Shown here: positions 3,557 through 62,549 of the stretch, piece after piece
How positions within the stretch are numbered: position 1 is the stretch's first letter
Layout of the letters: each line of letters opens with the position of its first letter
Position numbers and translations under genes: made by a program
Notes under the pieces: model-generated
What the model saw: the letters and a program-made list of their open reading frames with translations, nothing else
Told to the model about the DNA's origin: nothing
The model's database searches: none
Assembly (NCBI GenBank): GCA_050013775.1
Contig: JBEKEP010000001.1
Location: 2,878 to 66,877 of the forward strand
Source: Terracidiphilus sp.
GTDB taxonomy: Bacteria > Acidobacteriota > Terriglobia > Terriglobales > Acidobacteriaceae
Length of the DNA stretch: 64,000 nucleotides
Reading direction: 5' to 3'

Positions 3557-5008
3557 TTATCCGCCAAGAGTGAAGATTACGTTGACCGTAGTTTCAACTT
3601 CTGTCGGCTGGTTGTTGAGTTGGTACGGTTTGTAGTGCCAGGACCGCACGGCATCGAGTGCCGCGGACCGCAACATGGGTGGTCCGCTTACAACCTGCAA
3701 ATCCGTAATCGCTCCGGTCTTGGAAATAATGGCATGCAATACCACCGTGCCGGAGACGCGGGCTGCTTTAGCGATGGTCGGATAGAGGGGTTCCGTCTTT
3801 CGAGTCAGCATTCCAGTCGCGACGCCGGATGAAATGACGAGCGGCTTGGAAGCATTCATGACGGGCTGTGCGCGTCCTTTGAAGAGGCTGGGATTCGTGC
3901 TGTTACCGCCCAGGCCATCCGCACCGGTCGTGCTAAAGTTCTCGGGGGCAGGCTCATTTTCCGCGACTTGCTTCGGAATCGTTGTTGGCGCGGCGAGTTG
4001 ACCGTTCATCATTTGCGTCTGCGCCTCTCCCGGCTTCACTGCGTTCTCATTGTTGGTCGGCTGGTCATTCGTCGTCTGTTGATTTCCGGTAGTTGCCTGT
4101 GGCTTGTCCTGAGTGGACTGTCCCTTGGCCGACGGCTTTGGCGCGTTCGTCTGCGGCTGAGTTTCGGTTGTTGCGGGAGGGGGCTGAATCGATTGTTTCG
4201 ACGCGGCCTTCGCTCCATGATGGAACAGCGGGATCATACAAACGATCAGAAGCAGAATCGAACCGGCGCTAACCGGAGCAACGATCATCCACTTCTTTTT
4301 CGCCGTCTTCGGCTCTTCCGGGACTTCGGTTTTCTTCGTAGAAAACAACTGGAAGATTACCTCGTCAGCATCGGCTCTCAGCGCCGCTTTGAATTCGGGT
4401 GAGTTAGTAATTCCATCCGCCTTAGCGGCGTTTTGCCCACGCGGCGTCGCGGCAACCCCGTTTGCCGTTTGGCTGGCGTCTGGTTTGTGCGAAGCGCGGC
4501 TGGGCGATTCATCCACCAACGCGCTCGCCACCTCTTGCTTCCTGGCAATGCCTGGTACGGACGAGGCTGAGTCCGACACACGGGGCTTCTTCGTCACGGG
4601 CGGCAAGATTACTTCGCGTTCTGCCGCTTGGCCTGGCGATTTTGCAGTCTTACCGAAAGAAAGAGCGGCTTCCCATGCTTCCCGTTCCCAGGGGTTACGC
4701 GGCATAGCCGCAGGAATTGCTTCGCCATTTCGATTGACGAATTCCTTTTGCTGCTTAACAAACACCGGCGCGGACGGCCCTGAGCCTGAAATACGCGGCA
4801 TGTCCACCGGGGATTCCGATAATGTATCGTGATCGGCGGACTGCCGGTGCGGCTTTGCAATCTCGTCGAGGGAAAGAGCGGCTTCCCATGCTTCGCGTTC
4901 ACCGGAGTGATCAGGCGAAGGCGCAGAAGAAGATTCGCCATCCCATTCGAAGAAGTCCTCGGGTAGAGTTTCGGGTAGCGACGGAGCTAATTTTTCTGAA
5001 GATGCCAT
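3557..5008 (-). CDS. TonB C-terminal-domain protein with a long (about 240 aa) cytoplasmic N-terminal extension
   Basis: 483 aa with a single TM (WMIVAPVSAGSILLLIVCMIPLF), a Gln/Pro/Thr-rich linker, and a C-terminus LYPTIAKAARVSGTVVLHAIISKTGAITDLQVVSGPPMLRSAALDAVRSWHYKPY that is typical of TonB_C. Its start overlaps the upstream gene by 22 nt. Confidence 0.8.
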   Translation of the reverse strand: MASSEKLAPSLPETLPEDFFEWDGESSSAPSPDHSGEREAWEAALSLDEIAKPHRQSADHDTLSESPVDMPRISGSGPSAPVFVKQQKEFVNRNGEAIPAAMPRNPWEREAWEAALSFGKTAKSPGQAAEREVILPPVTKKPRVSDSASSVPGIARKQEVASALVDESPSRASHKPDASQTANGVAATPRGQNAAKADGITNSPEFKAALRADADEVIFQLFSTKKTEVPEEPKTAKKKWMIVAPVSAGSILLLIVCMIPLFHHGAKAASKQSIQPPPATTETQPQTNAPKPSAKGQSTQDKPQATTGNQQTTNDQPTNNENAVKPGEAQTQMMNGQLAAPTTIPKQVAENEPAPENFSTTGADGLGGNSTNPSLFKGRAQPVMNASKPLVISSGVATGMLTRKTEPLYPTIAKAARVSGTVVLHAIISKTGAITDLQVVSGPPMLRSAALDAVRSWHYKPYQLNNQPTEVETTVNVIFTLGG

Positions 5009-7725
5009 TGACCGTCCCGTCCTTTCTCATAGACAGCGCCTTTGTACTTTCGTGTTTCGCGCGCGTTTGTCCTGGTTGCAGTGCTTTCGCCCGTTACGTC
5101 CGCCGGCTGCGAATCCGCGGGGGCAAGGTGGGTTGAGGTGAAGGTCCACGCGAACTGCGGCTCAGTTTCTGCGGTTGGCGATGAAGCAAGGTCGTGCGAT
5201 CCTTGCACCACAAGCACGACCGTGGCTTTCGCCGTCGCGTAGCTCTCAGTGTCCGACGGAGTGAACGTCGCGGAGAGGGTATACCTTCCAGGTGCGAGTA
5301 CGTTGCCCGCGGAAGGAGTGTAGACAAATGTTCCCTCGACCGATGCCGTAGCATTCAACTGAATATCGCTCAGCGCAGTGCCGTAGGAAATTAGAGAGGG
5401 GACCGGCCAGGTAATGATGCTTGCTAACTTCTCGGCAACCGTGAGCGGCACCACTGTCCTTACCGTTGTGTAATTCAGAGTGTCGGTCGGAGTGAAAATT
5501 ACCGAGAGCTCATGTACTCCCGGCGGGAGTATCTCGCCCGCGGCAGGTGAGAAGATTAAAGATCCCGGGACGGTTGCAGTGGCATTGAGTTGAATAGCGC
5601 TGAGGGCGGCGCCGTAGGTAATCGGCTCCGGTGTCGGCCACGTGATGGCAGGAGTTGCCTTCGCGACAGTCAGCGATGCGGAAGTCTGCGATGTGGAGTA
5701 GCCCAGAGTATCCGCCGGCGTGAAAACCGCCGACAGCCTATGCTCTCCGGCCGCGAGCACCGCTCCTAGGCCGGGGGTATACTCGAACTCTCCCGGAACC
5801 GACGACTCGGCACAGAGTTGCGTGGCGCTGAGCTGTGTTCCGTACGTGATCGGATCGGGTCTCGGCCATTGGATGGCAGACTTTGCCCTGGCCACGGTGA
5901 GTTGCACGGTGGCATGCGCTGTGACGTAATTCGCGGTGTCCGCTGCGGTGAACGTGACCGAGAGTGTATGCACTCCAGGAGCAAGCACCTCGCCCGGTGC
6001 GGGAGAATAGTCGAAGCTTCCAGGCGCCGGTGCTGAGGCGTTCAGTTGCGCATCGCCCAATGCGGTGCCGTAGATGATCGCGGCAGGTGTTGGCCACGTG
6101 AGGGCCGGCGCTGCCTTAGTCACAACGATTGAAATTGCAGCCTGCACCGGAGCGCGGTTGCTGCCGCCTGCCGGAGTAAATGTGACCCATATCGTGTGCG
6201 TTCCCACCGGCAGCACATAGCCCGGGCCGGGTGTGTAGACAAATCTTCCATCGACCGATGCCTCGGCATTGAGTTGGGCGTGGGTGAGTTTGTCTCCGTA
6301 GGCAATCGGGTTGGGTTCAGGCCACGTGATGGTCGGAGCCGGGCCCGTATCGGGCGCATGCAAGACCGCAGTGCTAGGCGGCTCATCATTATCAAATTCC
6401 GCCCGCGCACGGTCTCTGTCGAGATCTCTAAACTCGGATTCTCTAAGTCCGGCATCTTTAAGCCCGGGATCTTTCTTTTTCTCTGGAGGAAGAGGGCGCC
6501 CGGTAATTGAGCAGGCCATCTCCAGGCTTATGCGCGAAATGCATGTGTCTGCTTGCGCGGCGTCGCCGGACTGCAGTCCACGCGCTGCGCCCTGATCATT
6601 TGGAATCTTCCACCGTACCGGCCTGCCAAGAGCCTTGACGATGACATCTTCGTTCGCCGTTTCGTGGAAGCGTGAATCAAACCGGTTGATCACGATTTCC
6701 AGCTCTGAATTGCCTTCGCCGAAGAACTGTGAGATGACACGACTTGAATTGCGCAGTTCGGAGATCCCGGTCTGGGTGACCAGGTAAACGATCGATGCAT
6801 GTTCGAACAGGGCTTTGGCCGCTGGGTCAATCCTCGATCCCGCATCTACGACCACAAGATCGAATTCGCTCCGCGCGATTGCCATCAGCTTCTCGATGTC
6901 GCTTTTGGAAGCCTCGATTTCGGAAATTTGGGTGGGAGCCGCCAGCACGAAGACTCCTGACCGATGCTTGGCGACGATATTCTCAAGAAGAGTCGCATCC
7001 AGCCGGTCGATATTCTGCAGGGCGTAATCTGTCGAGTAGCCCGCGGCAATCCCCAGGCATAGCGCTGCGTCTCCAATGGGAAGAGCGAGGTCAATCAGCA
7101 GGACGCGCTGGTCTGGAGACTGGGCCAGAGCGATCGCAATGTTGCATGCGACCGTCGTAACACCCGATCCTCCCTTGGAGCCGGTAAAGACGAGCAGCTT
7201 TCCCTCGGCCCTCTTTCCTGAGTGACCTCTCTCGCGAAGGGCTGTGGTGGTCCGATCCAGAGCCTTGGCCATGGCGCCTTGCTCAAGAGGCAGAAGGAGG
7301 CACTCACGGGCGCCTGCGCGCTTCGAGCGCTGCGCAAGTTCAGCATCGGCCTTCTCCGAATAAACCATGATCGCTCCCCCGCTTTTGGCACTCGTTTTTG
7401 CCACCAGTTCCAGAGCGGTATCGGGTTCACTGTCCAGATCGAGAATGATCACGTCGAACGACGCCTGCAATCTTTGCAGGCGATCAAATCCCGGAGGATA
7501 GGAATCGAATTCTCGAATCACGACGCGACGAGTTTCGTCGAGAGCCTTGGCCATTGCCAGGCGTCTCCCCTCGTCTGGGCCGATCAAGGCAACCGACAAG
7601 AACTCAGCGCCAATGGCGCCGGCTTGTTTGCTGCCGAGTTTTGGTGACACATCCCCTGAACTCACGGTGAAAGTTGCTCCTCGTGGTACCATTCCCCTTT
7701 TCTCCTCAAGCCCGAATATCGACAT
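4987..7725 (-). CDS. CpaE/TadZ-like (receiver-like domain + ParA/MinD-type ATPase) protein fused to five tandem Ig-like repeats
   Basis: 912 aa. It has a receiver-like N-terminus (FDVIILDLDSEPD), a deviant Walker A (LLVFTGSKGGSGVTTVACNIA), then a charged linker and five repeats of 76-78 aa. No TM segment or signal peptide was seen. Confidence 0.8.
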   Translation of the reverse strand: MSIFGLEEKRGMVPRGATFTVSSGDVSPKLGSKQAGAIGAEFLSVALIGPDEGRRLAMAKALDETRRVVIREFDSYPPGFDRLQRLQASFDVIILDLDSEPDTALELVAKTSAKSGGAIMVYSEKADAELAQRSKRAGARECLLLPLEQGAMAKALDRTTTALRERGHSGKRAEGKLLVFTGSKGGSGVTTVACNIAIALAQSPDQRVLLIDLALPIGDAALCLGIAAGYSTDYALQNIDRLDATLLENIVAKHRSGVFVLAAPTQISEIEASKSDIEKLMAIARSEFDLVVVDAGSRIDPAAKALFEHASIVYLVTQTGISELRNSSRVISQFFGEGNSELEIVINRFDSRFHETANEDVIVKALGRPVRWKIPNDQGAARGLQSGDAAQADTCISRISLEMACSITGRPLPPEKKKDPGLKDAGLRESEFRDLDRDRARAEFDNDEPPSTAVLHAPDTGPAPTITWPEPNPIAYGDKLTHAQLNAEASVDGRFVYTPGPGYVLPVGTHTIWVTFTPAGGSNRAPVQAAISIVVTKAAPALTWPTPAAIIYGTALGDAQLNASAPAPGSFDYSPAPGEVLAPGVHTLSVTFTAADTANYVTAHATVQLTVARAKSAIQWPRPDPITYGTQLSATQLCAESSVPGEFEYTPGLGAVLAAGEHRLSAVFTPADTLGYSTSQTSASLTVAKATPAITWPTPEPITYGAALSAIQLNATATVPGSLIFSPAAGEILPPGVHELSVIFTPTDTLNYTTVRTVVPLTVAEKLASIITWPVPSLISYGTALSDIQLNATASVEGTFVYTPSAGNVLAPGRYTLSATFTPSDTESYATAKATVVLVVQGSHDLASSPTAETEPQFAWTFTSTHLAPADSQPADVTGESTATRTNARETRKYKGAVYEKGRDGQWHLQKN
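5197..6342 (-). repeat. five in-frame tandem coding repeats (about 229-234 nt each) inside the CpaE-like gene
   Basis: Repeat starts recur as ccacgtgatgg / ccacgtgaggg / ccattggatgg / ccacgtgatgg / ccaggtaatga (I/L-T/Q-W-P) near 6325, 6090, 5870, 5640 and 5405. Protein pattern: TWP.P..I.YG..L...QLNA.A.V.G.F.Y.P..G.VL..G.H.LS..FTP.D...Y. Confidence 0.85.
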
Positions 7726-11758: not shown

Positions 11759-11950
11759 CTACGCGAGGGAAGTGCTGACGTTGGTGAAGACCTTCGTCAC
11801 TGCGGTCGCAATCGGAGTGATACTTGAGATCATGGCCAGAGCGATCAGCGCGCAAAGCAGCCCGTACTCGACCAGGTCCTGGCCCTGTTCGCTGCTCATG
11901 AGGTTCTGGAACTTCACGTACATTGTGATAAGTCTCTCGTGCATGTTCAT
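11759..11950 (-). CDS. flp: Flp family type IVb pilin
   Basis: 63 aa. It has the leader plus processing/hydrophobic motif SSEQGQDLVEYGLLCALIALAMI typical of Flp/Fap pilins, and an AAGGAGG RBS. Confidence 0.8.
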   Translation of the reverse strand: MNMHERLITMYVKFQNLMSSEQGQDLVEYGLLCALIALAMISSITPIATAVTKVFTNVSTSLA

Positions 11951-12270
11951 TTCGCCTCCTTGTTTGTCTCGTCGTGATTCCGATACTGGGGCAGGGAATC
12001 AAATTGCACAATGCGGCTTTGGCTGCACCACCTCCCGCCCGATAAGTGCTGATTTGCTGTGTATCGGTAACCGTCGAATGGTTACTATCTCCGCCATGCG
12101 CTGCTCCGTGAGTCAACTAAATCGCTGAAATATTTATGGATGTATCTTCTGCACCGTGGAGTGACTTTGGAAAAAATCCTAACGCCAACCCTTGTTTTCT
12201 TGCGCTATACTTAGGCGCTCCACTTCCCCAGGCCCTCTTTCCAGCCATCTTTTTCAAGGAGATTGAGCCC

Positions 12271-14331
12271 ATGCATTTCCCCCTCCCTGGTTTCAAGTCA
12301 ATTCCGGTCCATGCCACCAGCCCGTTCTCTGCCCACACATTGAGAGTTGCGATCTCTCTCCTGTTTGTCGTTATGGCCGCGCGAACCGCTTTCCCGCAAG
12401 CGGAAATCAATCCATGGAAGCCTTCGGGATCGGTTTACTGGATCGCCAATCCTATACGGCTGAACATCGGATACACCGACCAGAACGGCAAGCCCACCGC
12501 CGCCGTGGTCGACTCGCTTTCAGCGCAGCAACTCGCCGGCTTGCCCCCTGGCCTGTTGCAGGCAAAAGGGTCTGACCTTTTTACGGCGGGGCACTTCGAT
12601 ACGCTGTGGACCGCGATGAAAGGCGGCATTTGCAGCGACGTGCAGCAGGCCATCAGTACGCTTGAGAACCACAGCCCCAACTCGCCCTACAACATTCAGC
12701 CCTGCATCATGAATCCCAAGGGCTATCTCACCGCCAACTTTCAGGAGACGTGGGAAGACGATTCGATGAACACGGTCAACGGACGCCGCATCCGCTTCAC
12801 CTTTCAGGCACCGTTGAACGGCGTCACGTTCTGGATGACTTCGCCGCACACGTGCCATGTGGGCAGCAACTGCCCCACTGAACCGACGGATCCGGCCTTC
12901 ACCGTCGTGTTCACCGTCTATCTCACGGTCACCTGCACGTCCACGCCCAACGCCACCAGCTTCGAACTGCCGGTTACCTGCACGCCCGCCGTCGACCTCT
13001 CCGTAGATGGCGTGTACGGCGGCGATGTGACGGGCCAGCTTGTCGCTTCCACCACGAAATTTGTAACGCAGCTTGCAGCGGAAGGCGCGGCTGCGGCGGC
13101 AAGCGGCGGCACCGTCGCGCCCGAGGCGGCAATCGGCGCCATCACTTCGGCCCTCAATCTCGCCGTTCAGGGCATCGGCACTCTCATCGCGGCCGACACC
13201 GATCAGCATTTGCGCGACCAGGTTTCGGCCTATATCGTAGGGTTCGTGAATTCGCCCACGCTCGATTCCAATTCGACCAGCGTGAGCAACGATTTCAATA
13301 CCCTCTTTCAGAATCTTTACCAGGCGTACCTGGGCGGTTTGCGGCCATTCGTCGTGGCCATCAGTCCCAAGCTCGATTTCGATTTCGGTCTCGTCTATCC
13401 CGCCCCTGCCAAGCCGCAAATCCAGAACACCACGGCGGCAAATAACAAGGGCAGTCTCTTTTCGCAAACCATCGCGGTCGCGCAGCCCGAGGTTGTGGCC
13501 GGGCAAATGCTTCCCGTCACAGCATCGTTTTTCCGCGGCGCCTACGTGAATGCGCTGAACATTGCATGGAACAAGACGGTGCTAGGCGACACGAAATCGT
13601 CGCTCGCATGGGGACCTCCGCCGGTGACCATCACCACGCCGGCGCTTACTTTCAACGCCATCGATCTCAAGCCCGCGACGCAATACAAGTTCCAGGTGCA
13701 CGAGTGCGACGGATTGAGCTGCGCTCCGCTGAGCGACGTGCTCACCACCTCCACCGAGGCCACGGGCAGCAACGACGTTTACTTCTGGCTCGACAACAAT
13801 ACCGGCCAGATCATTGGCCACAATACCGTAGGCGCTACCGGCGGACAGTTCATGACCAATGTGCTCATCCCGGCTGCCACTACGCCGGGCGCGCATCTGT
13901 TGCATGCGGGAACCCCTGGCGGCCAGCCTGCTACCGCTTCCATCACGGTCTGCCAGGTGGGCGGCTGCGGGCCTTCGGTCGGAGTTGTCAACACGTCGAA
14001 CAACACTCTTTATCAGCCGGGCTCGGTGGTCGAGGTCGGGTTGCCGGTAGTTGTGCGCGGCTCAAAGTTTGCTCCCGGCGGCTCAGCGTGGATCTGGGTG
14101 GATGGTGTGCAGGGCACGAAAGCAGGGGCCGCGCCGGTGGGGCCGCTGGGCAACTTCCAGGCGAGTTTCACTGTGCCCATGGTCGCAGCTGGAAAGCACA
14201 ATCTCGTCGCCATTGAGCTCAAGCCGGGGGTGAAGCTGCCGCCGACGCCGAAAGGCAAGACGCCTGTATTCCCGCCGCAGGATTTTGTGAGCGCCAGTGT
14301 CGCTGTGTACGTGCAGGCACAGGCGCAATGA
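12271..14331 (+). CDS. large secreted protein of unknown function with C-terminal FN3/Ig-like modules
   Basis: Start chosen at MHFPLPGF (AAGGAG RBS 8 nt upstream). Signal-like stretch VAISLLFVVMAARTAFPQAE. The C-terminal part shows an FN3-like DLKPATQYKFQV and two Ig-like units (G.F...L/VP....G.H.L.A). The N-terminal 450 aa match no family I recognise. Confidence 0.65.
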   Translation: MHFPLPGFKSIPVHATSPFSAHTLRVAISLLFVVMAARTAFPQAEINPWKPSGSVYWIANPIRLNIGYTDQNGKPTAAVVDSLSAQQLAGLPPGLLQAKGSDLFTAGHFDTLWTAMKGGICSDVQQAISTLENHSPNSPYNIQPCIMNPKGYLTANFQETWEDDSMNTVNGRRIRFTFQAPLNGVTFWMTSPHTCHVGSNCPTEPTDPAFTVVFTVYLTVTCTSTPNATSFELPVTCTPAVDLSVDGVYGGDVTGQLVASTTKFVTQLAAEGAAAAASGGTVAPEAAIGAITSALNLAVQGIGTLIAADTDQHLRDQVSAYIVGFVNSPTLDSNSTSVSNDFNTLFQNLYQAYLGGLRPFVVAISPKLDFDFGLVYPAPAKPQIQNTTAANNKGSLFSQTIAVAQPEVVAGQMLPVTASFFRGAYVNALNIAWNKTVLGDTKSSLAWGPPPVTITTPALTFNAIDLKPATQYKFQVHECDGLSCAPLSDVLTTSTEATGSNDVYFWLDNNTGQIIGHNTVGATGGQFMTNVLIPAATTPGAHLLHAGTPGGQPATASITVCQVGGCGPSVGVVNTSNNTLYQPGSVVEVGLPVVVRGSKFAPGGSAWIWVDGVQGTKAGAAPVGPLGNFQASFTVPMVAAGKHNLVAIELKPGVKLPPTPKGKTPVFPPQDFVSASVAVYVQAQAQ

Positions 14332-14392
14332 GCGTATTCTCGTAGCGGCATCGGCCGATCGAATCGCCGCCCCGATGCTGGAGGAGGTCAGA

Positions 14393-15370
14393 ATGATGTA
14401 CCGGTCGAATCTCATCGCAGTGCCGTGTCTCATCGCAGCGGCGTGCATGGTCCCCGTTATCGGCTGGACCGTGTCAAAGGACTTCAACGGGAGAATGTGG
14501 CTTGCGAAAGTACCCGCCCTTCCCAGCAGTGCACAGGTTGCCTATCAGCAGTGGATCGATGATGGCAACGGAGTCCTGAAGCCCGGCGAAGAATTCAAAG
14601 CGGTCGACCAGGGCATCAATGATGTTGTCACCGACCAGGCTCAGGCCAACATGGCATCCCCGGAAAACCAGGCGCAAATGCAGCAGCAACAAACCGCGGC
14701 CCAGCAGCTCGCAGCCAAATACGGCACTCCCGAAGGCCAGGCCCAACTCAAGGCCATGACCCCTGCCCAATTGATGGCCCTGGCCCAGCAGATGCAGCCG
14801 CAGACCAACATGCCGCGCACGGTTTCGCCTGGTGACCAGCAGTTGTTGCAGAAAATTGGCGATGGCGTTTATTCGGGAAAACAACAGGTGATGGCCGACG
14901 TGCTGAAGTTACAGGTTCAAGTCAACGCCGTTGACAGCCAGTGGGACCAGGCTCTGTCTGCACTCGGGCCACAGGAACAAGCGCAGATGAGCAAGTTGCC
15001 CGTTTGCGCGGGCGAAGCTGGGATCCCTTCAAGCCTCGACATGGAAAAACTGGAGCTCACGTTTGCCGATCAGCGCATCGCCATTGCCTCGCAGTACCTG
15101 CCCCAGTTTGCGCCCATCATCGGCAAAGTGCGTGCGGCCGTATTGCCGGAGATCGACTTCGGCGATGATGCGCTTGCCGCCTGGACGCAGCTCTCCGATC
15201 CCGCACTGAAGCAGCAGGTTTCGCCCTCAGCCCATGGAGCGGAGCAGCAGGGCCTTGGCGATGTGGGCATCATTGAGCAGATGGTCGAGGGGGCATCATC
15301 AAGGGCCGCCCAGTCCGTGGAAGACAAGAAGAAGATTGAAGTGAAGTACGCCAACGCCCACGGATGTTAA
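14393..15370 (+). CDS. Gln-rich secreted/anchored protein of unknown function
   Basis: A GGAGGAGG RBS precedes ATGATG at 14393. N-terminal hydrophobic segment LIAVPCLIAAACMVPVIG. No recognisable domain. Confidence 0.55.
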   Translation: MMYRSNLIAVPCLIAAACMVPVIGWTVSKDFNGRMWLAKVPALPSSAQVAYQQWIDDGNGVLKPGEEFKAVDQGINDVVTDQAQANMASPENQAQMQQQQTAAQQLAAKYGTPEGQAQLKAMTPAQLMALAQQMQPQTNMPRTVSPGDQQLLQKIGDGVYSGKQQVMADVLKLQVQVNAVDSQWDQALSALGPQEQAQMSKLPVCAGEAGIPSSLDMEKLELTFADQRIAIASQYLPQFAPIIGKVRAAVLPEIDFGDDALAAWTQLSDPALKQQVSPSAHGAEQQGLGDVGIIEQMVEGASSRAAQSVEDKKKIEVKYANAHGC

Positions 15371-15429
15371 GGCCGGCGCAGAGAACGCCCATCTGGCTTT
15401 TATGGAATTCCACTAAAGGATGGATGATC

Positions 15430-15505
15430 TGGAGCCGACGGTCAGACTTGAACTGACGACCTGCTGATTACGAATCAGCTGCTCTACCAACTGAGCTACG
15501 TCGGC
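15430..15505 (-). tRNA. tRNA-Thr (anticodon CGT)
   Basis: The reverse complement GCCGACGTAGCTCAGTTGGTAGAGCAGCTGATTCGTAATCAGCAGGTCGTCAGTTCAAGTCTGACCGTCGGCTCCA folds as a cloverleaf: 7-bp acceptor, GCTGA/TCAGC anticodon stem, loop TTCGTAA, encoded CCA. Confidence 0.9.
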
Positions 15506-15575
15506 CTGCATCCTTGATTGTATCGTTGCTCCGGTTGAAGGTAAAGGCGCGCCCGATGCGGGTGGAGCTATACTT

Positions 15576-16319
15576 TTGCCCATGCAAGTCGATCCTGTTC
15601 TCGAGTGGCAAAGGCTGACGGCGGAGTACCGCGAAAAGGGCGAAGGAGAACTGCTCGAGCTCGCTCGCGACCATGCCGATCTGACCGAACCCGCGCAGCA
15701 GGCATTGCGCGCCGAGATGCGCAGCCGCGGCTTGGGCGATCCGGAATCCCCGCGCATAGCGCCGGAAGCGGAAGCTTCACAACCAATTTCATTTCCGTCG
15801 CGGCCTGCAGATTCCATCGCAGAGCCTCAATCGGAAGTGCTCACCGACCAGGCAGCTGGGCTGCTCGGTCTCAGCGCGGGAATGCCGCGACTCGTTCCAG
15901 ACCAGCCCGAATCCGATAACGGCGACAATGGTCCGCACGAATACACGTGGAAGACGCCGCTTTGTGATTGCGAGACCAACGATCAAGCGCAGCAGCTCAC
16001 AGCAGTGTTGCGGCAGGCCGGCATCGATAGTTGGATCCAGCAGGCACGCGAGTTCGGACGCCGCAACGCACGAGTCATGGTCGCTGCCGATCAGCTCGAT
16101 CAGGCGCAGGCCGTCGCTGCACAATTCGTTCCCCAAAAGATCGCTGAGGACGCAACCGAGGAAGTGCCGGAGTTTGTCGAGCCTAAGTGTCCCAAATGCG
16201 GGTCTGAGGACGTGGTTCTCGAGGGCGTGGACCCTGAAAACACCTGGCGCTGCGAGCAATGCGACGAGCAATGGACGGAAACCGCGCCGGCAATCGCAGG
16301 GGAAGGTCCAAAGGAGTGA
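15576..16319 (+). CDS. hypothetical protein with DUF2007-like fold segment and C-terminal zinc ribbon
   Basis: 247 aa, acidic, with CPKCGSEDVV...WRCEQCDEQW at the C-terminus. Confidence 0.55.
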   Translation: MPMQVDPVLEWQRLTAEYREKGEGELLELARDHADLTEPAQQALRAEMRSRGLGDPESPRIAPEAEASQPISFPSRPADSIAEPQSEVLTDQAAGLLGLSAGMPRLVPDQPESDNGDNGPHEYTWKTPLCDCETNDQAQQLTAVLRQAGIDSWIQQAREFGRRNARVMVAADQLDQAQAVAAQFVPQKIAEDATEEVPEFVEPKCPKCGSEDVVLEGVDPENTWRCEQCDEQWTETAPAIAGEGPKE

Positions 16320-16337
16320 AAAGATGCTTATAAACGG

Positions 16338-16368
16338 AAAGAGCCGCCCGGCAACAGGGCAGCTCTTT
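16338..16368. terminator. hairpin in a convergent intergenic region (bidirectional terminator candidate)
   Basis: AAAGAGC-C-GCCC ggcaaca GGGC-A-GCTCTTT sits between the converging genes 15576..16319(+) and 16625..17845(-). Confidence 0.55.
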
Positions 16369-16624
16369 CCTCAGGGAGAATAGTCCCAACGGAGGCAAAC
16401 CCATTAGAACTTTCTGGCTGCATACTAGGTTCGGCGGAAAGCAGTGTCAAGGAAAAATATAAGCAAAAATAACTAGTTTTGTTTCAATACTTTAACAATT
16501 GAATCGGGGCACGGACAACCCTATTTTCTTCGCTGATCGTTCGCCTGTATATTTTCGTGATTTCCCGGGATTTGGTGCTGTTTTTTCGGGTTTCCGTCCA
16601 TTTTTCCACAAGATGGAAGCGGCG

Positions 16625-17845
16625 TTAACCCTTCGGATGCGGTTGTTCGGTGACCTTGATCACTTCGACCACTTCCACCGCTTTTTCCCGCAGATCGAGG
16701 TGAATAAACTCCATGTCGAAGACCGACGAGGTCGGTTTTCCCGTCACCTTCCGGTAAAGCGCCCGGCCGCCACCGAAGAACCCGCCCAGCAAAATGGCCG
16801 CTCCACCGCCGATCAGGCTCAGGACGGCAATGCCCATCAGCAGCTTGCTGGTCTTCTCGATATCCGACTGCACCGGCTGCGGAATCGCCGTCATTTCGGC
16901 GTCGTAATGCACGGACTCGATCAAGCGGTGGCTGTCGTCGGGAATGGCATCGCCGCTCACGATCACCACCAGCGGTCCGCTATCCCGCACTTCGAGCGAC
17001 GCGGTATCAGAGTCATTCAGCGGTTTGGGCCATGGTGGCGTCGCCTGGCTGCCGGCCTTCAGATACGCGCGAATCGCGTCCACCTGCGCGTGGGCAATCT
17101 GCGGCGTGGGGTAATCGATCAGCGTGAGCGTGGCCACGCCCGAGGTGAGAGAGTAATTCGCCGTCAGGGTTTCAGCGCCTTTGTCAAACTTGACCAGCGA
17201 TGGCGGCAACACGCCGCCCGCGCCCGCGTAGCCGGCCGGGCCCAGCGCGTAGTGCGTGGTCTGCGGGTCAAGCTGTGCTTTTGGCAGGCTAACAAGGATG
17301 GGCGGAGGCAACGAGCTGCTGCCATAAACCGCAGGCAACTGGCGCGCAATCTCGCGCAATTCGCCTGCCGACTCCGGCCCTATCTGGGAAAACGTGGCGT
17401 CCACGACCGTGGTTCCCACCCAAAACAAAACGCGTTTGTTATCCGACGCCGCGCCGGTGCCGATCTCTTCTTTCGGCCAGCCGTTCTGCCGGTAGTAGCT
17501 GTACGCGCCATAGGCCCCGCTTGCGTCATCGAAGCGCAATGCGCGCAGGCTCAGCGTTTGACCCTCGCGCTTGTAACTGGCCTCGACGGCCGCGTTGAAC
17601 CCATATTCCTTGAGCGCCGCGGCATTGGTTGGATCGGCCTGCGCGGGATCGGTCACCGTTTTCGAGGTTTCAGCCGTCACCCAGCCGTCAAATGCATCGG
17701 GCAAAATGGCCTTGGGCGAAGGCGGAAGCGTGAGGACGGTGGCCGATTTCTTCTCCGCGGCAGTAGGCTGCCCGGCCTGCGCGCACGTCAAAGCCGCGCC
17801 ACATCCGAACGCCGTTACACCGCAAACTATTCCCAACCACCGCAT
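16625..17845 (-). CDS. secreted protein of unknown function with C-terminal TM anchor
   Basis: Start chosen at MRWLGIVCGVTAFGCGAALTCAQA (signal peptide). C-terminal TM is LLMGIAVLSLIGGGAAILLGGFFGG. The long plus-strand ORF opposite (16499..18064) reads as Arg/Gly-rich junk. Confidence 0.65.
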   Translation of the reverse strand: MRWLGIVCGVTAFGCGAALTCAQAGQPTAAEKKSATVLTLPPSPKAILPDAFDGWVTAETSKTVTDPAQADPTNAAALKEYGFNAAVEASYKREGQTLSLRALRFDDASGAYGAYSYYRQNGWPKEEIGTGAASDNKRVLFWVGTTVVDATFSQIGPESAGELREIARQLPAVYGSSSLPPPILVSLPKAQLDPQTTHYALGPAGYAGAGGVLPPSLVKFDKGAETLTANYSLTSGVATLTLIDYPTPQIAHAQVDAIRAYLKAGSQATPPWPKPLNDSDTASLEVRDSGPLVVIVSGDAIPDDSHRLIESVHYDAEMTAIPQPVQSDIEKTSKLLMGIAVLSLIGGGAAILLGGFFGGGRALYRKVTGKPTSSVFDMEFIHLDLREKAVEVVEVIKVTEQPHPKG

Positions 17846-17979
17846 CAAAAACTTCTCACTTCCCCGGGCACGCGCAGCACAAAGCCCCAATCTTCAGGGT
17901 ACACGTTCGCACTACGCCGCTGCCGCGCGCGAAACCTACTCTCTTTTGACACGGAAGCATATAGAAAGGTTCCCGGCGC

Positions 17980-18489
17980 TTACTCGTCTGCGCCAGTCCA
18001 CGGCGTCAGCCGCGGCAGCCAGCGCGGCACATTCTGCTTGAAGCGCAGATACCCGTCGCCGTAGCGCCGGGTGAGCGTGGGTTCTTCGTAAAAGCAGACG
18101 AAGAGGTGCACCAAGAGCCACACGATTGCGAGATAAGCAACCATCGCGCGCCGTTCGAAAAGTATTGCTTCACCGGCCAGAGCGATCAGGATGCCCACGT
18201 ACATGGGATTGCGCACACGACGATAGAAGCCGCTCACCACCAGGTGCTCCGTCGGCGCCGTGGGCACAAGCGTCCCGCGGCCCACAACCACAAAGCGCCG
18301 AATGGATTCAAATGCCGGCGAGACTCCGGCCAGGATGAGCACCGAAGCCAGCAGCATCTGGCCCCACGGTTCGCCGGCCGGAATGCGAAAGTGCGTGATC
18401 CACAACGGCAGATAGACCAACACAAACCCCGGCCCGCCAAAAATGACGAACAGGACAGAGACGATGATGTTGCGACGCGAATTTGCCAT
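17980..18489 (-). CDS. isoprenylcysteine carboxyl methyltransferase (ICMT)/phospholipid methyltransferase family membrane protein
   Basis: 169 aa with multiple TM segments and the motif LVVSGFYRRVRNPMYVGILIALAGEAI. Confidence 0.75.
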   Translation of the reverse strand: MANSRRNIIVSVLFVIFGGPGFVLVYLPLWITHFRIPAGEPWGQMLLASVLILAGVSPAFESIRRFVVVGRGTLVPTAPTEHLVVSGFYRRVRNPMYVGILIALAGEAILFERRAMVAYLAIVWLLVHLFVCFYEEPTLTRRYGDGYLRFKQNVPRWLPRLTPWTGADE

Positions 18490-18641
18490 GCCGGTATGTC
18501 CCGATTAAGATTACGACTTCTCAAGAACAGAGGCTTCATGCGCGCGGCTTCGGCAAACGCGCTGTCGAACCAATTATTCCTTGATCCAACCTTGAGCGCT
18601 TCGCGCGGCGGCAGCGTCGAATCAACAGGAACCCCGAGACC

Positions 18642-19475
18642 ATGAATGGAAAAACTGAAAACATGGGATGCGTCCACTTGCGAATCGCAGCAATTTGGTT
18701 TGCTGCGGCCAGCGCTTTTGCGCAGGGGAATTCGGCGCCCGTCGAAGCACAAAAGGCGCCTGACGGTCTTCCACAATTCGCGGCCGCTTCGGTGCGGCCA
18801 TCCGGCCCAGACAGCCGGGAGCTCAACGGTCTTCGCACCCTCCCCGGCGGCAGGATTATTGGCAAGGGAGTCCGAGCGCAATATCTCATCATGGTGGCGT
18901 TCAACGTCCAGCACTTCCAAATCGCCAGCGCTCCTGTCTGGACTGATTTAGGAACTGGTACGGGATTCGATATCCAGGCTGTACCCCCGTCAGACTCCGC
19001 CTCGGCGCAAGCGAAGCCAGCCTTCTCCGTCGACCCTCCAGATGACGAAGAGTGCCGCATGCTGCAGGCCCTTCTGATCGACAGGTTTCAGTTGAAATAC
19101 CACTTCGAATCCAGGGAGGTCCAGACGTACCTGCTTGAACGCGGCAAGGGCAAGCTCAATCTGCAACCCCCCAAGGACAAGACTGCATATCCCTGGGCCG
19201 GTGGAGACTACCAAACCTGGTATGGCGGGAAAAACATCTCCATGCCCAAGCTGGCCGTACGCCTGAGCGAATGGCTGGAACGTCCTGTGGCCGATCAAAC
19301 GGGACTGAGCGGTTCCTTCGACTTCGAGTACAAGCCCGGCGACGTCGACAACAGCGCTGACATCACGGGGTTCCTTTTCACGGCGATGAAGGCCCTCGGC
19401 CTCGAAATCAAAGCAAGCAAAGGCTCTGTCCAAACCATCGTGATCGATCACATCGAGCGGCCTTCGCCGAATTGA
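18642..19475 (+). CDS. TIGR03435-family (soil-associated, Acidobacteria-expanded) protein
   Basis: 277 aa with a signal peptide, FAAASVRPSGPDS...LRTLPGGRIIGKGVRAQYLIMVAFNV and the C-terminal VIDHIERPSPN, all characteristic of this family as I recall it. Confidence 0.7.
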   Translation: MNGKTENMGCVHLRIAAIWFAAASAFAQGNSAPVEAQKAPDGLPQFAAASVRPSGPDSRELNGLRTLPGGRIIGKGVRAQYLIMVAFNVQHFQIASAPVWTDLGTGTGFDIQAVPPSDSASAQAKPAFSVDPPDDEECRMLQALLIDRFQLKYHFESREVQTYLLERGKGKLNLQPPKDKTAYPWAGGDYQTWYGGKNISMPKLAVRLSEWLERPVADQTGLSGSFDFEYKPGDVDNSADITGFLFTAMKALGLEIKASKGSVQTIVIDHIERPSPN

Positions 19476-51739: not shown

Positions 51740-52237
51740 CTACGATTGTGCGTCCGTGTCGGGATGCAAGAACGCCAGAAACACGATGCCGATTACAGTG
51801 AAGCTTCTGAAAGCTTCCTCCTGCCCATTCCAGGTGCTTGACTGCCACATGAGAAACCACTCACCGCCGACGGTCAGAAACGCCACGAGCCACATCAGCA
51901 ACGAGAGCGTGAGCGCAAGCACGGGCAGGAATTTGGCCGCGTTGAAGGCCGCAGCAGGCAGGCGCAAAGCGCGCAGCAGGCGGGCAATGCCCCACCAAAG
52001 CAGGACGCCCGTGATGATTTCCCAAGCAATGATGCCGATGTAAAAGACGCGATCGACGACTGGCGAAGAGATCGAACGCCACATGCCACCATTGCCCGGG
52101 AAGGTTGAATCCATCAGCAAAACATGACGAACAAACTGCGCGTTCGTGCCGAAATCGGTAAGGTTATTGAACACGACAAGGCTGTAAAACAAAGCAACGC
52201 CAGCCAGCAGCAGCAGCTTCGCAGTGCGAATCATCAT
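51740..52237 (-). CDS. DUF2165 family small integral membrane protein
   Basis: MMIRTAKLLLLAGVALFYSLVVFNNLTDFGTNAQFVRHVLLMDSTFP, with four TM segments. Confidence 0.65.
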   Translation of the reverse strand: MMIRTAKLLLLAGVALFYSLVVFNNLTDFGTNAQFVRHVLLMDSTFPGNGGMWRSISSPVVDRVFYIGIIAWEIITGVLLWWGIARLLRALRLPAAAFNAAKFLPVLALTLSLLMWLVAFLTVGGEWFLMWQSSTWNGQEEAFRSFTVIGIVFLAFLHPDTDAQS

Positions 52238-52278
52238 TTTGTGTGCGGCCTCAATCGCCCTCGAAGTGTGAACAGACC

Positions 52279-52770
52279 CTAGATCGGAGCTTCCCAGTCG
52301 TCCGTCGCGGTCTTGCCGCCATCGGACCATGTGACTTGGATGGCCTGGTAATCAAGCGTAATCTGCTCGTTGCGGCCCGCCTTGCGAATGCTCAAGATGG
52401 TGGCGTTTGTGAGCACGATCTTCTGTGCAGTCTTCGCGCCGCCCGTGGCGCCCTCAAGAGTAATCACCACTTCGCTCAACGACTCGTTTGTACTCAACGC
52501 CGTGGCGAACTTGGGCGACGCAGCATCGACCTCTCTGACGATGGTGATGGTAGAGTGCATCCGTCTGCCGGTGGACATCCCGGTCGGGGTATCGCGGACG
52601 ACGCTGATGAGCTTGATGCTATCGGACATCGCATCGCCCTTGATGGGTCCTTGCTTGGCGCCTTTCACCGTCATGTACGCATTGACCGCGGCCATGGCCG
52701 GCACTGCGGACAGCAGCGCAGAGAGCGCGCCGCAAAGCACAAACAACCTTCCTGCATGAACGAATCGCAT
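52279..52770 (-). CDS. Hcp (T6SS tube protein)-like protein with predicted N-terminal Sec signal peptide
   Basis: An AAGGAGG RBS sits 7 nt before ATG 52768-52770. The N-terminus is MRFVHAGRLFVLCGALSALLSAVPAMA, then VNAYMTVKGAKQGPIKGD..., TGRRMHSTITIVREVDAASPKF and ITLDYQAIQVTWSDGGKTATDDWEAPI. Confidence 0.7.
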   Translation of the reverse strand: MRFVHAGRLFVLCGALSALLSAVPAMAAVNAYMTVKGAKQGPIKGDAMSDSIKLISVVRDTPTGMSTGRRMHSTITIVREVDAASPKFATALSTNESLSEVVITLEGATGGAKTAQKIVLTNATILSIRKAGRNEQITLDYQAIQVTWSDGGKTATDDWEAPI

Positions 52771-53001
52771 CGCAAACCTCCTTGAGCTTTCAATCGGTGG
52801 GAAGCCGTGAAGCCGGGTGCGGTATTTCGCAGTGCTTTCCCGGCGGCGACAGTATATCGCCCGTTGCCGCTGCTGCAATCTTTTTCTGCATTCGTTTGAA
52901 AGCCAAAGTACCGGGCGCACCTGGCAGAGCCGGGACAGGGGATCGGCGTTGGAACGCAGGTCCGAAAGTGAGAGTCGAGGCCGTTCAGCCAGGACCCGCG
53001 G

Positions 53002-53352
53002 CTACGCCTTGAGGGCCGCCAGGCTATCGGCGGCCGTGGCATCGATGGGTAATAGCGTGTTGGTCCTGGTCAGTTCCAGCAAGGACACGATCCGCGGAGC
53101 CACGCCACAAAGGCGCAATGCGCCGCCTTTGGCTGCGAGCGAGCCGTAGGCATACACCAGCATGCCGAGTCCCGCGCTGTCGATGAAACCAACGTCGGTC
53201 AGATCGAAAACGACTTTATGGACGCCGTCGTTGATGATTGACCGCACTTGCGATTCCACCATGCTGAGAGAGGAGCCGAGCGTGATTTGCCCCGTAAAGA
53301 CAACCACGGCACAGCCGTCAGGATGCTTGTCGATCGATGCACTCACAGGCAT
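53002..53352 (-). CDS. STAS-domain anti-sigma-factor antagonist
   Basis: 116 aa with VVFDLTDVGFIDSAGLGMLV (the conserved phosphorylatable Ser context). Confidence 0.8.
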   Translation of the reverse strand: MPVSASIDKHPDGCAVVVFTGQITLGSSLSMVESQVRSIINDGVHKVVFDLTDVGFIDSAGLGMLVYAYGSLAAKGGALRLCGVAPRIVSLLELTRTNTLLPIDATAADSLAALKA

Positions 53353-61768: not shown

Positions 61769-61818
61769 AGGATACTTCCTATCGTTCGGAAAAGGCAGTT
61801 TCTAGGCCGCCGTTTCTT

Positions 61819-62103
61819 CTATGGTAACGGTTCGCGGGGCAGGGCCTGCGAACTGCAGCTGCAATCCCCGCTGGAGCGAGCAGGCGGGACAGGATCGAAT
61901 CCGCCCGGCGTGAAGGGATGGCAGCGCAACAGACGCCAAGCGGCCAGTCCGCAGCCCCGCAATGGACCGTGCGTGGCAATGGCGCCGGCCGCGTATTCAG
62001 AGCAAGTTGGGATAAATTTGCATCGGCTGGTGCTCACCGCATGCAGCGCCGGAGAAATCCAGCGGCGGTACCAGGCGATAAGTGCGAGCAGAAAGCGTGT
62101 CAT
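61819..62103 (-). CDS. yidD: membrane protein insertion efficiency factor YidD
   Basis: [13 protein letters not shown]....[42 protein letters not shown]. Its start overlaps the rnpA stop. Confidence 0.9.
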
Positions 62104-62549
62104 GGTGCGGGTGTACCTGGGGCCTGTGATGCGGCGACAGGCGACTTGGCCAGGCGCGACGCCTCATTTCCAGCCTGTTCAAGGATACGTACGATCTCAG
62201 CCTCAAGTTGCGCAAATTCCATGGAGAGCACGTTGCGGCGGGGATGAAAGATGAGATCGAAGCCCTGAGGCAGCAAATCGACGTGGCGGCGCAGTGCTTC
62301 ACGCATGCGGCGCTTGATGCGGTTGCGCTCGTTAGCTTTGCCCATGACTTTGCCCACGGTGAGGCCGACACGTGATTCTGGCGTGGCTGCAGCATCCGGA
62401 CCGGCAGGCGTCCGCGGCGCCAGGAACCAGCTCATGGACGCGGATTGTCTCTTGCGGGCGGCCGCGTAGGCGCGCTGATAGTCGGCGTGCTTGCGCAGGC
62501 GCGCTCCCGCCAGGGTTTGGCGTTGAGCAGGCCTGGATAGAGAATTCAT
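62100..62549 (-). CDS. rnpA: ribonuclease P protein component RnpA
   Basis: [35 protein letters not shown]. It occupies the conserved position between rpmH and yidD. Confidence 0.85.

Follow-up and report, generated by a model that had tools for sequence, protein, structure and literature searches.

A TadZ/CpaE-like ATPase with a stalk of immunoglobulin-like repeats and its overlapping TonB-like partner in Terracidiphilus: a conserved two-gene module that appears to derive from the Tad pilus operon

The stretch of DNA analyzed here, 64,000 nucleotides (nt) of a Terracidiphilus sp. contig (JBEKEP010000001.1, assembly GCA_050013775.1) that is referred to below as the window, encodes on its reverse strand a 912-amino-acid (aa) protein in which a receiver-like domain and an ATPase domain of the TadZ/CpaE type are followed by a stalk of five immunoglobulin (Ig)-like repeats and, overlapping it, a 483-aa TonB-like bitopic protein with a single transmembrane (TM) helix. 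The two genes are a real two-gene module, and the copy in the window appears to be a conserved derivative that became detached from a tad operon, its ancestral place being the cpaE slot. The explanation proposed, that of an envelope-anchored variant of the Tad organizer TadZ, is considered fairly probable as a whole; the physical tether and the Tad origin are each regarded as quite likely, and for a current pilus function of the window copy the balance leans slightly to the negative.

Relatives of the long protein are abundant: 496 were found among 5.8 billion proteins, most of them 880–900 aa long with the same architecture and carrying the database name 'Flp pilus assembly CpaE family ATPase', and a protein search for the TonB-like partner gave 321 relatives. 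A scan of one genome per species yielded 289 genome stretches that encode a relative, out of which 80 loci were kept, all from Acidobacteriaceae or Terracidiphilus-type metagenome-assembled genomes (MAGs) and many of them from peat, bog, fen or palsa; together with two loci from other look-ups, 82 were clustered by open reading frame (ORF). An ATPase gene could be recognized in 77 loci; in about 70 of these it is followed at once, on the same strand, by the TonB-like gene, mostly with an overlap of exactly 22 nt, and the exceptions to this adjacency are contig ends or split ORFs. Clustering recovered the genes of the pair in 77 and 71 loci, with no third conserved gene beside them in the 82 loci (the next cluster was present in only 23). 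Recurrent neighbors (an aldo-keto reductase, GH94, an RND efflux pump and GH9) were rejected as module genes since they reflect lineage synteny only. Intact ORFs of the pair, at 45–95% identity, are present in about 70 species-level genomes. Five loci in long-read MAGs (L049, L055, L059, L072 and L082) have the ATPase or the TonB-like gene split into fragments, which could be homopolymer frameshift errors of assembly or genuine decay.

In the 912-aa protein, Pfam assigns residues 176–385 to AAA_31/CbiA, and the ATPase domain matches Protein Data Bank (PDB) entry 3ea0 by sequence (E 3e-27). The AlphaFold2 (AF2) model, built on 73 homologs with a mean predicted local distance difference test score (pLDDT) of 75, was compared to the PDB by Foldseek, where 3ea0, a ParA-family ATPase from Chlorobium, ranked first (template modelling score 0.81). 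The fifth match was the two-domain Eubacterium rectale protein 3fkq, which we take to be the published TadZ structure, with 402 aligned columns covering both the receiver-like and the ATPase domains, followed by MinD, FlhG, FleN and Soj; the similarity to 3fkq is at the level of fold only and was not picked up by phmmer at E 1e-3. The receiver-like domain shows an alternating beta/alpha pattern (pLDDT ~85) and a weak Response_reg match at residues 55–156 (E 3e-4, 21 bits, under the Pfam cut-off); the lysine of the canonical 'KP' is replaced by leucine (L145-P146), and D96, D98 and S123 are conserved. In the Walker-A-like motif, G182, K184, G185, G186, G188, V189, T190 and T191 are invariant among 73 sequences, the invariant valine occupying the position of the canonical P-loop (catalytic) lysine. 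The TadZ consensus for this motif, quoted in a study of Bdellovibrio TadZ, is K/RGGxGxS/T (bioRxiv 10.64898/2026.07.08.737194), and KGGSGVT of the 912-aa protein fits it. In NCBIfam, the highest-scoring families are Ssd, an actinobacterial homolog of CpaE, and MinD, neither of which comes near its cut-off (minD_bact, 63 bits with respect to 213).

The protein thus resembles Aggregatibacter TadZ, Caulobacter CpaE and 3fkq in the succession of an atypical receiver domain and a ParA/MinD-fold domain, as well as in a Walker-A-like motif devoid of the P-loop lysine. It differs from them by 500 extra residues (linker, five Ig-like domains and end motif), by its dedicated TonB-like partner and, for the window copy, by a location outside a tad operon. 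MinD shares the same ATPase fold; nevertheless, in the window protein the second lysine of KGGxGK[ST] is a valine, no MinC or MinE is involved, and the chain, having lost the terminal motif of its short relatives, ends in a tail motif instead of an amphipathic helix; a protein would serve as its anchor.

A Kyte-Doolittle-19 scan found no TM segment or signal peptide in the 912-aa protein, the sole segment scoring at least 1.6 being a core strand of the ATPase that contains two aspartates. The linker that follows the ATPase domain begins with EKKKDPGLKDAGL, a degenerate remnant of the basic/hydrophobic C-terminal motif of short CpaE proteins. The repeats (73–77 aa each, with pairwise identities of 41–59%) are modelled as five beta-sandwiches with pLDDT ~90; Pfam places Ig_CFAP65_4th and HYDIN_VesB_CFA65-like_Ig over residues 470–850, and Foldseek relates the region to the Ig domains that are repeated in tandem in surface proteins (Sap S-layer, GhpA and cadherins). 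A hidden Markov model (HMM) made from the repeats recovers each of them at E ~1e-38 and no further copy elsewhere in the window. The number of repeats among relatives ranges from 2 to ~19. In P0113, seven almost identical repeats stand in a row, either by very recent tandem amplification or as an assembly artefact; these near-identical copies argue for length, and against specific binding, as the role of the Ig array. After a further disordered stretch (residues 844–887), the protein ends in a motif that AF2 folds into a small three-strand beta meander (residues 891–911, pLDDT ~83). This tail motif is near-invariant in the 73 homologs, is kept at 45% identity and, in several other subfamilies, is also present in one or two copies ahead of the Ig array, after the ATPase; it is a movable module.

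Within the tail of the 912-aa protein, the Gln-Trp codons contain the ATG at which the TonB-like gene starts (caATGg), and in 68 sequences of the TonB-like protein M1, A2, P12, T14, L15, P16, F19, W22 and D23 of its N-terminal peptide are invariant. The cytoplasmic region beyond this peptide is rich in A/S/E/P, has a net charge of -10 and contains two short helices (REAWEAAL at 4871-4900 and 4658-4693) plus a juxtamembrane helix; AF2 gives the cytoplasmic arm a pLDDT below 50 save for helices 35–46, 106–117 and 204–222 and predicts no folded cytoplasmic domain in the 483-aa protein. In the family consensus, a unit of ~70 aa occurs in duplicate within the arm. An FFAT-like reading of EDFFEWD in the window protein, as a pair of phenylalanines within acidic residues that could bind MSP/ASH-like Ig domains, was ruled out, since the second phenylalanine is not conserved (DFxEWD, where x is G, S or N) and a tryptophan sits where FFAT needs a small residue. 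The TM helix is preceded by KKK and followed by a conserved LFHHG, its two histidines lying at the periplasmic edge and none in mid-membrane. The periplasmic spacer carries the conserved motifs MMNxQLxAPxxIP (3965-4015), in which M334, Q337, P341 and I344 are invariant, and GADGLGG; the former is retained in the fused and tad-embedded forms described below. At the C-terminus, TonB_C is the only Pfam match of the protein (residues 406–481, E 4e-18, 66 bits with a cut-off of 24.6); TIGR01352 of NCBIfam also matches this domain, which is well conserved in the family and modelled with pLDDT ~90, and its top Foldseek matches are the TonB C-terminal domains 1xx3, 6i97, 1u07 and 2gsk (template modelling scores 0.76–0.83, root-mean-square deviations 1.6–2.0).

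Some relatives carry both proteins as a single chain: P0017 (1445 aa), P0242 (1322 aa), P0243 (2041 aa, where the repeat HMM detects 17 repeats), P0245 (1529 aa) and P0246 (1134 aa), which belong to at least five distinct clusters at 50% identity. The order in these fusions is receiver-like domain, ATPase, Ig array, linker, TM helix (KKKW...), MMxDQLNAP motif and TonB_C. All five lack the tail motif (ETRxYKGxxYxKGxDGxWHLQ) as well as the N-terminal arm of the partner. Because both elements are conserved together and lost together in the fusions, they are proposed to meet; in the simplest reading, the tail motif and the N-terminal peptide of the partner would be a non-covalent joint that fusion made unnecessary. 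The fused chains also fix the topology of the repeats: with only one TM helix between an ATPase that depends on ATP of the cytoplasm and a TonB domain located in the periplasm, the Ig array must be cytoplasmic. Adjacency with translational overlap in about 70 loci, together with these natural fusions, makes the pair a dedicated module extending from cytoplasm to periplasm. This had been suspected in a first-pass annotation, made by a model from the letters of the DNA, and the structural details it had read (two ORFs, their overlap, the domain order, the spacer, one TM helix and the long cytoplasmic N-terminus) hold in every case; Pfam, the PDB sequence match and Foldseek agree with its CpaE/TadZ and TonB_C assignments, and both the Kyte-Doolittle scan and the topology of the fusions with its placement of the repeats in the cytoplasm.

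Other C-terminal ends are found among the relatives, namely a multi-TM domain (P0012) and a fused TM helix without TonB_C (P0244 and P0075). In one subfamily (P0249, P0251, P0254, P0256, P0258 and P0259) the Ig array is followed by an acidic spacer and a degenerate second half-ATPase segment, with a further copy of ETRxYxGxxYxKGxDGxW and a long K/A/P-rich, histone H1-like tail, which suggests a DNA or polyanion anchor replacing the TonB-like membrane anchor.

The link to Tad pili comes from relatives with 47–52% identity to the window protein that hold the pair within complete tad operons, directly upstream of tadA and after the prepilin peptidase, the position of TadZ/CpaE. The L085 operon encodes an A24 prepilin peptidase, the ATPase-Ig protein (P0039, 1302 aa, 52% identity to the window protein over only about half of the query), a 342-aa TonB_C protein whose gene overlaps that of the ATPase-Ig protein by 22 nt, T2SSE (TadA/CpaF), T2SSF (TadB), T2SSF (TadC), a PilZ-like protein, TadE and Tad/TadG, and the operon of L078, a locus from an Acidobacteriaceae MAG, is the same. 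The TonB-like partners of L085 and L078 start with MVPPEEIEKEKPETLPADFSEWD and MAPTVKIEGKQPATLPADFGAWDSGEHPETLPDNFDDFD and have kept TonB_C along with the motif of the periplasmic spacer; TLPADFxEWD is common to tad-embedded partners, some of which have it twice, and the 22-nt overlap was found in 10 of the 12 tad-embedded pairs examined. Another tad-embedded partner (L111:8582-9901) has two TLPxDFxxWD/FD copies and a long repetitive A/E/K/R-rich stretch (AEAKAQAEARRQAEADA...) that is coiled-coil-like. Upstream of long-form tad operons lie a sigma-54 activator and then a conserved 470–490-aa protein with no Pfam match, and L078 also holds an extra short receiver-ATPase gene of the CpaE-like type.

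Metagenome contigs were scanned with the TadA of L085 and the gene directly upstream of tadA was typed in the 64 loci with enough upstream sequence. A short CpaE occupies this position in 52 of them (stop-to-stop frames of 391–590 aa, mostly 400–470) and the long Ig form plus a TonB-like gene in 10, eight of which show the 22-nt overlap; one locus (L113) has no CpaE upstream of tadA. The short tad-embedded CpaE proteins typically end in KKKGFSLFG (36 of the 52 by a loose pattern), a basic/hydrophobic end that resembles the membrane-targeting helix of MinD, and many long forms retain EKKKGFSLKGLGRS at this same position, just before the linker. In a neighbor-joining tree of 159 ATPase cores, drawn without support values, all 83 detached Ig forms, including the window protein and the fused P0017, P0242, P0243, P0245 and P0246, form one clade nested among tad-embedded CpaE proteins. 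The nearest short relatives annotated as 'CpaE' (P0266 group) were expected in tad operons as well, an expectation that was rejected as they occur in tandem pairs beside CYTH, Sua5 and Hfq. Tandem CpaE-like ATPases (P0394 and P0435) outside any tad locus were observed at L083:8588-11206 and L084:8089-11206; a 121-aa TonB_C protein with a signal peptide just upstream of the tandem pair in L084 was discarded as a non-conserved association, L083 having a 57-aa remnant.

A second trace of the Tad system is a Flp-type pilin gene upstream of the pair. It is monocistronic, and two alcohol dehydrogenases, a zf-UBP protein and a protein with no Pfam match, all unrelated, are encoded between it and the pair. 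A phmmer search with the window Flp recovered a homologous flp gene, sometimes two, in each of the five loci most closely related to the window (L003, L035, L055, L059 and L065, the last with 94% identity), where it shares the strand of the pair and stands 3–5 kb upstream; in the other detached loci the search found none. Many tad loci have flp at its canonical place, before the A24 peptidase. The proximity of flp may be inherited synteny and possibly represents what a broken-up flp-cpaA-cpaE... operon would leave, as the remaining link to the Tad system.

The ATPase had been described in the first-pass annotation as an orphan, which is right for the window and its nearest relatives (neither in the window nor in about 75 of the latter does the pair stand with tad or exbBD genes) and wrong for the wider family with its tad-embedded members. 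The accompanying statement that the pair could not be mapped to a described system is not supported: tad-embedded pairs share the 22-nt overlap, the tail motif and the N-terminal motif of the partner, and the detached clade is nested among tad-embedded CpaE proteins. It had also been considered that close homologs might always lie within tad operons, which would make this copy a relocated fragment; such is the location of the distant homologs and not of the close ones, and the window copy is thus a conserved derivative that became detached, as opposed to a broken piece moved from elsewhere or a new system without relation to Tad.

Around the pair, a phmmer search of the six-frame translation of the window with proteins from one relative's tad operon gave no homolog of TadA, TadB, TadC, the A24 peptidase, TadE or TadG, and the ~60 window ORFs of at least about 100 aa gave no Pfam match to MotA_ExbB, ExbD or pilus families. 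The downstream flank encodes a glyoxalase and a RibD_C protein, both unrelated to the pair. Adjoining flp, five same-strand ORFs of 731, 357, 247, 521 and 179 aa (12136-18645, plus strand) have no Pfam match (at E 1e-3 for the 731-aa ORF and E 1e-5 for the others) and might represent true genes of an unknown kind or, in DNA so rich in GC, frames on the wrong strand; a DUF3738 protein is encoded after them at 18642-19475. Further along, an isolated Hcp (T6SS_HCP) gene (52279-52920) stands beside genes for a DUF2165 membrane protein (51740-52330) and a STAS-domain protein (53002-53352), all on the minus strand, with no type VI secretion gene other than Hcp in the window ORFs scanned. Both yidC and rnpA are found near the right end of the window (59906-62549, minus strand), and the cumulative GC skew is lowest at ~32–34 kb and climbs steadily from there; the window may therefore include an origin or a terminus of replication. 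The coordinates of the features are collected in Table 1.

Table 1. Positions of the gene pair, its domains and motifs, and associated genes (window coordinates unless a locus is named)
Feature	Position	Strand	Evidence
Gene for the 912-aa TadZ/CpaE-like protein with Ig stalk	4987..7725	-	Whole ORF including stop
Atypical receiver-like domain, residues 43-165	7231..7599	-	Weak Pfam match, AF2, fold alignment
ParA/MinD-fold ATPase domain, residues 176-410	6496..7200	-	Pfam AAA_31/CbiA, PDB matches
Walker-A-like motif GSKGGSGVTT, residues 182-191	7153..7182	-	Alignment of 73 sequences
Disordered linker, residues 411-464	6334..6495	-	pLDDT <50 (AF2)
Five tandem Ig-like repeats, residues 465-842	5200..6333	-	Repeat HMM, Pfam, AF2, Foldseek
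Repeat 1	6106-6333	-	
Repeat 2	5878-6105	-	
Repeat 3	5650-5877	-	
Repeat 4	5419-5649	-	
Repeat 5	5200-5418	-	
C-terminal tail motif ETRxYKGAVYEKGxDGQWHLQKN, residues 888-912	4990..5064	-	Homolog alignment, AF2
22-nt overlap of both genes	4987..5008	-	Read from sequence
Gene for the 483-aa TonB-like bitopic protein	3557..5008	-	Whole ORF including stop
N-terminal peptide MASxEKLxPxLPETLPEDFxEWD, residues 1-25, proposed docking motif	4934..5008	-	Alignment
Acidic, mostly disordered cytoplasmic region, residues 26-238	4295..4933	-	AF2, composition
Single TM helix, residues 239-263	4220..4294	-	Kyte-Doolittle-19 maximum 2.54; AF2 helix 243-262
Q/T/P/N-rich periplasmic spacer, residues 264-398	3815..4219	-	Composition; AF2 disordered
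TonB C-terminal domain, residues 399-483	3560..3814	-	Pfam, AF2, Foldseek
Flp-type pilin gene, 63 aa (...GQDLVEYGLLCALIALA...), ~4 kb upstream of the pair, same strand	11759..11950	-	ORF, phmmer
flp near the pair in L003	L003:4998-5591		phmmer
flp near the pair in L035	L035:3169-3750		phmmer
flp near the pair in L055	L055:2466-2699		phmmer
flp near the pair in L059	L059:6488-6838		phmmer
flp near the pair in L065	L065:5569-5802		phmmer
Gene at the long-form tad operon, L078 (upstream gene or extra CpaE-like gene)	L078:2487-3716	-	
Gene at the long-form tad operon, L078 (upstream gene or extra CpaE-like gene)	L078:6772-8220	-	
Upstream gene of long-form tad operon, L085	L085:5129-6556	-	

According to the explanation proposed, the 912-aa protein would be a TadZ/CpaE-class organizer of the Tad (Flp, type IVc) pilus machinery, and the TonB-like protein, co-translated with it, would be bound to its C-terminal end through docking of the tail hairpin on the N-terminal peptide of the partner. 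The pair would then constitute an envelope-spanning tether. On its outer side, the TonB domain might take hold of a ligand in the periplasm or outer membrane through pairing of beta-strands, in the way TonB binds TonB boxes; a receptor's beta-strand 'TonB box', the N0 domain of a pilus secretin and peptidoglycan are the candidates. On the inner side, the Ig stalk would be a spacer that keeps the TadZ-like hub a fixed distance beneath the inner membrane; there the TadZ-like domains would recruit or position their cargo, TadA and the platform. The window copy might continue to serve Flp pili, perhaps acting in trans for a tad operon at another site of the genome. A more extensive version, put forward tentatively and regarded as somewhat unlikely, is that a TonB-family protein is integral to a subset of Tad machines and links the envelope to the TadZ hub via a rigid Ig stalk. 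The envelope end would be the secretin, another TonB-box protein or an ExbBD-type motor driven by the proton motive force; the stalk of 5 to ~19 Ig domains would be ~20–75 nm long, by the rule of thumb of ~4 nm per Ig domain; and the detached copies would be a second-generation tether, reused as a free-standing envelope-anchored positioning device.

The 483-aa protein is similar to TonB in its N-in bitopic topology, its extended low-complexity periplasmic spacer and its TonB-fold C-terminal domain. It differs in having a cytoplasmic arm of ~240 aa, whereas TonB proteins in general are without a cytoplasmic domain (PMC8262864), as well as in a spacer rich in Q/T/N/P, not in Pro-Glu/Pro-Lys, in the absence of linked exbBD genes and in having a cytoplasmic ATPase as its partner. 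A TonB-family protein tied to pilus placement is known in Pseudomonas aeruginosa, where the production of type IVa pili and their positioning at the pole require PocAB-TonB3; according to the authors of that study, the N0 domain of the secretin resembles the signalling domain of a TonB-dependent receptor, and an interaction of TonB3 with N0 has been suggested (PMC5285504). Unlike the system described here, PocAB-TonB3 uses ExbB/ExbD paralogs and acts on type IVa pili, with no ParA/MinD-type partner, Ig array or fusion, and there is no evidence of PocAB-like genes here. Another TonB-like bitopic protein with a long N-terminal cytoplasmic arm, disordered for the most part and carrying short motifs that recruit nucleotide-dependent regulators of the cytoplasm, is found in the Agl-Glt gliding machinery (GltJ/GltG) of Myxococcus, in which the 377-residue cytoplasmic arm of GltJ, with a disordered linker, recruits MglA-GTP and AglZ (PMC11135422). 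Its ZnR and GYF domains and its binding to the GTPase MglA set GltJ apart: Pfam and AF2 give neither domain in the 483-aa protein, the partner of which is a TadZ-like ATPase. Because of the PocAB-TonB3 and GltJ precedents, a TonB-like protein in pilus placement is plausible. A comparable docking logic is that of cytoplasmic PilM, which docks on the N-terminal peptide of PilN, with GspL of type II secretion as the fused equivalent; it parallels the proposed joint, including fusion in some lineages, although there is no homology (actin-like PilM with respect to ParA-like TadZ, and the ferredoxin-like domain of PilN with respect to TonB_C).

Several points weigh against this explanation. The case for binding between the tail and the N-terminus of the partner consists solely of their joint conservation and joint loss, and the tree that would nest the detached clade among tad-embedded CpaE proteins carries no support values. 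The partner appears not to be obligatory, because one of the 64 tad loci (L120) has the long Ig form with no adjacent TonB-like gene. The pair adjoins no core tad gene in the window and in about 75 nearest relatives, and the present cargo of the detached pair could be non-pilus. In E. coli TonB, the histidine of the SHLS motif in the TM helix couples to ExbB/ExbD, a motif that varies among TonB paralogs. With no linked exbB/exbD and no such mid-membrane histidine, it is doubtful that the 483-aa protein is energized like a true TonB.

The most serious alternative, itself judged unlikely, is that the detached pair no longer serves pili and has been co-opted to regulate transport across the outer membrane. 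Certain TonB-dependent receptors would then have the TonB-like protein as their specialized energy transducer, which the receiver-ATPase-Ig protein, responding to ATP or a phospho-signal in the cytoplasm, would turn on or off or gather into clusters. Such a role fits the canonical and well conserved TonB C-terminal domain, the detachment of the pair from tad genes in ~75 loci, the retention of Asp96, Asp98 and Ser123 in the receiver-like domain, and the CarboxypepD_reg/Plug receptors that are often, though not conservedly, near Acidobacteriaceae loci. It fits less well with the lack of a conserved receptor or exbBD gene beside the pair and with a TM helix deprived of the mid-membrane histidine; moreover, TadZ-type Walker-A variants are not known as transporter switches, the ancestral context is the tad operon and, in the subclade of the window, a flp gene remains nearby.

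The pair could also be a general envelope-anchored positioning system with a non-pilus cargo (the division site, polysaccharide export or another polar organelle), in which the TadZ-like ATPase would be a landmark of the ParA/MinD type and the TonB-like protein would fix this landmark to the cell wall; this is regarded as quite improbable. Paralogous short CpaE-like ATPases of the lineage do occur outside tad loci as tandem pairs, and the fused P0017 lies beside GGDEF and Wzz/Wzy/Poly_export genes. Additionally, the anchor is replaced by a multi-TM domain in P0012 or by the K/A/P-rich tail in P0249, P0251, P0254 and P0259, and because subfamilies swap it in this way, one hub with interchangeable anchors is suggested. 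However, no candidate cargo gene is conserved near the pair, and the tad operon is the only recurrent functional context found.

That the pair is a decaying, relocated fragment of a tad operon without present function is very improbable: its detachment from tadA/B/C and the prepilin peptidase and the frameshifted or split copies in the five loci mentioned above would be in line with decay, but the intact ORFs in ~70 species-level genomes, the invariant motifs, the 22-nt overlap and the conserved partner contradict it, and the split copies come from long-read MAGs and may be assembly errors. Export of the repeats to act outside the cell, as in other bacterial Ig arrays, is scarcely credible despite a repeat type and fold typical of extracellular proteins (Sap S-layer, GhpA and cadherins), since the protein has neither a signal peptide nor a TM segment that would separate the ATPase from the repeats, and in the fusions the repeats stand on the ATPase side of the single TM helix with the TonB domain on the opposite side.

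Literature searches for a TonB-like component of tad loci and for CpaE with Ig repeats in Acidobacteria found no paper describing the combination. The protein families are known; what appears to be new is the association of TadZ with a cytoplasmic Ig stalk, an end motif and a TonB-like anchor, along with the fusions and the detached clade. The family is large, with hundreds of protein clusters. Long Ig-like arrays in the bacterial cytoplasm are unusual, and their variable repeat number suggests a molecular spacer that could be visible to cryo-electron tomography. After PocAB-TonB3 of Pseudomonas, this would be a second, independent case of a TonB-family protein in pilus placement and not in nutrient uptake. 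TadZ/CpaE, known to place the Tad pilus machine in the cell, is the least understood part of that machine. In one widespread lineage of soil and peat, the same operon position is filled by three interchangeable solutions, a short CpaE with a basic/hydrophobic end, an Ig-stalk protein with a TonB-like partner, and a fused chain, and these give a direct, testable hypothesis for how the TadZ hub may be anchored.

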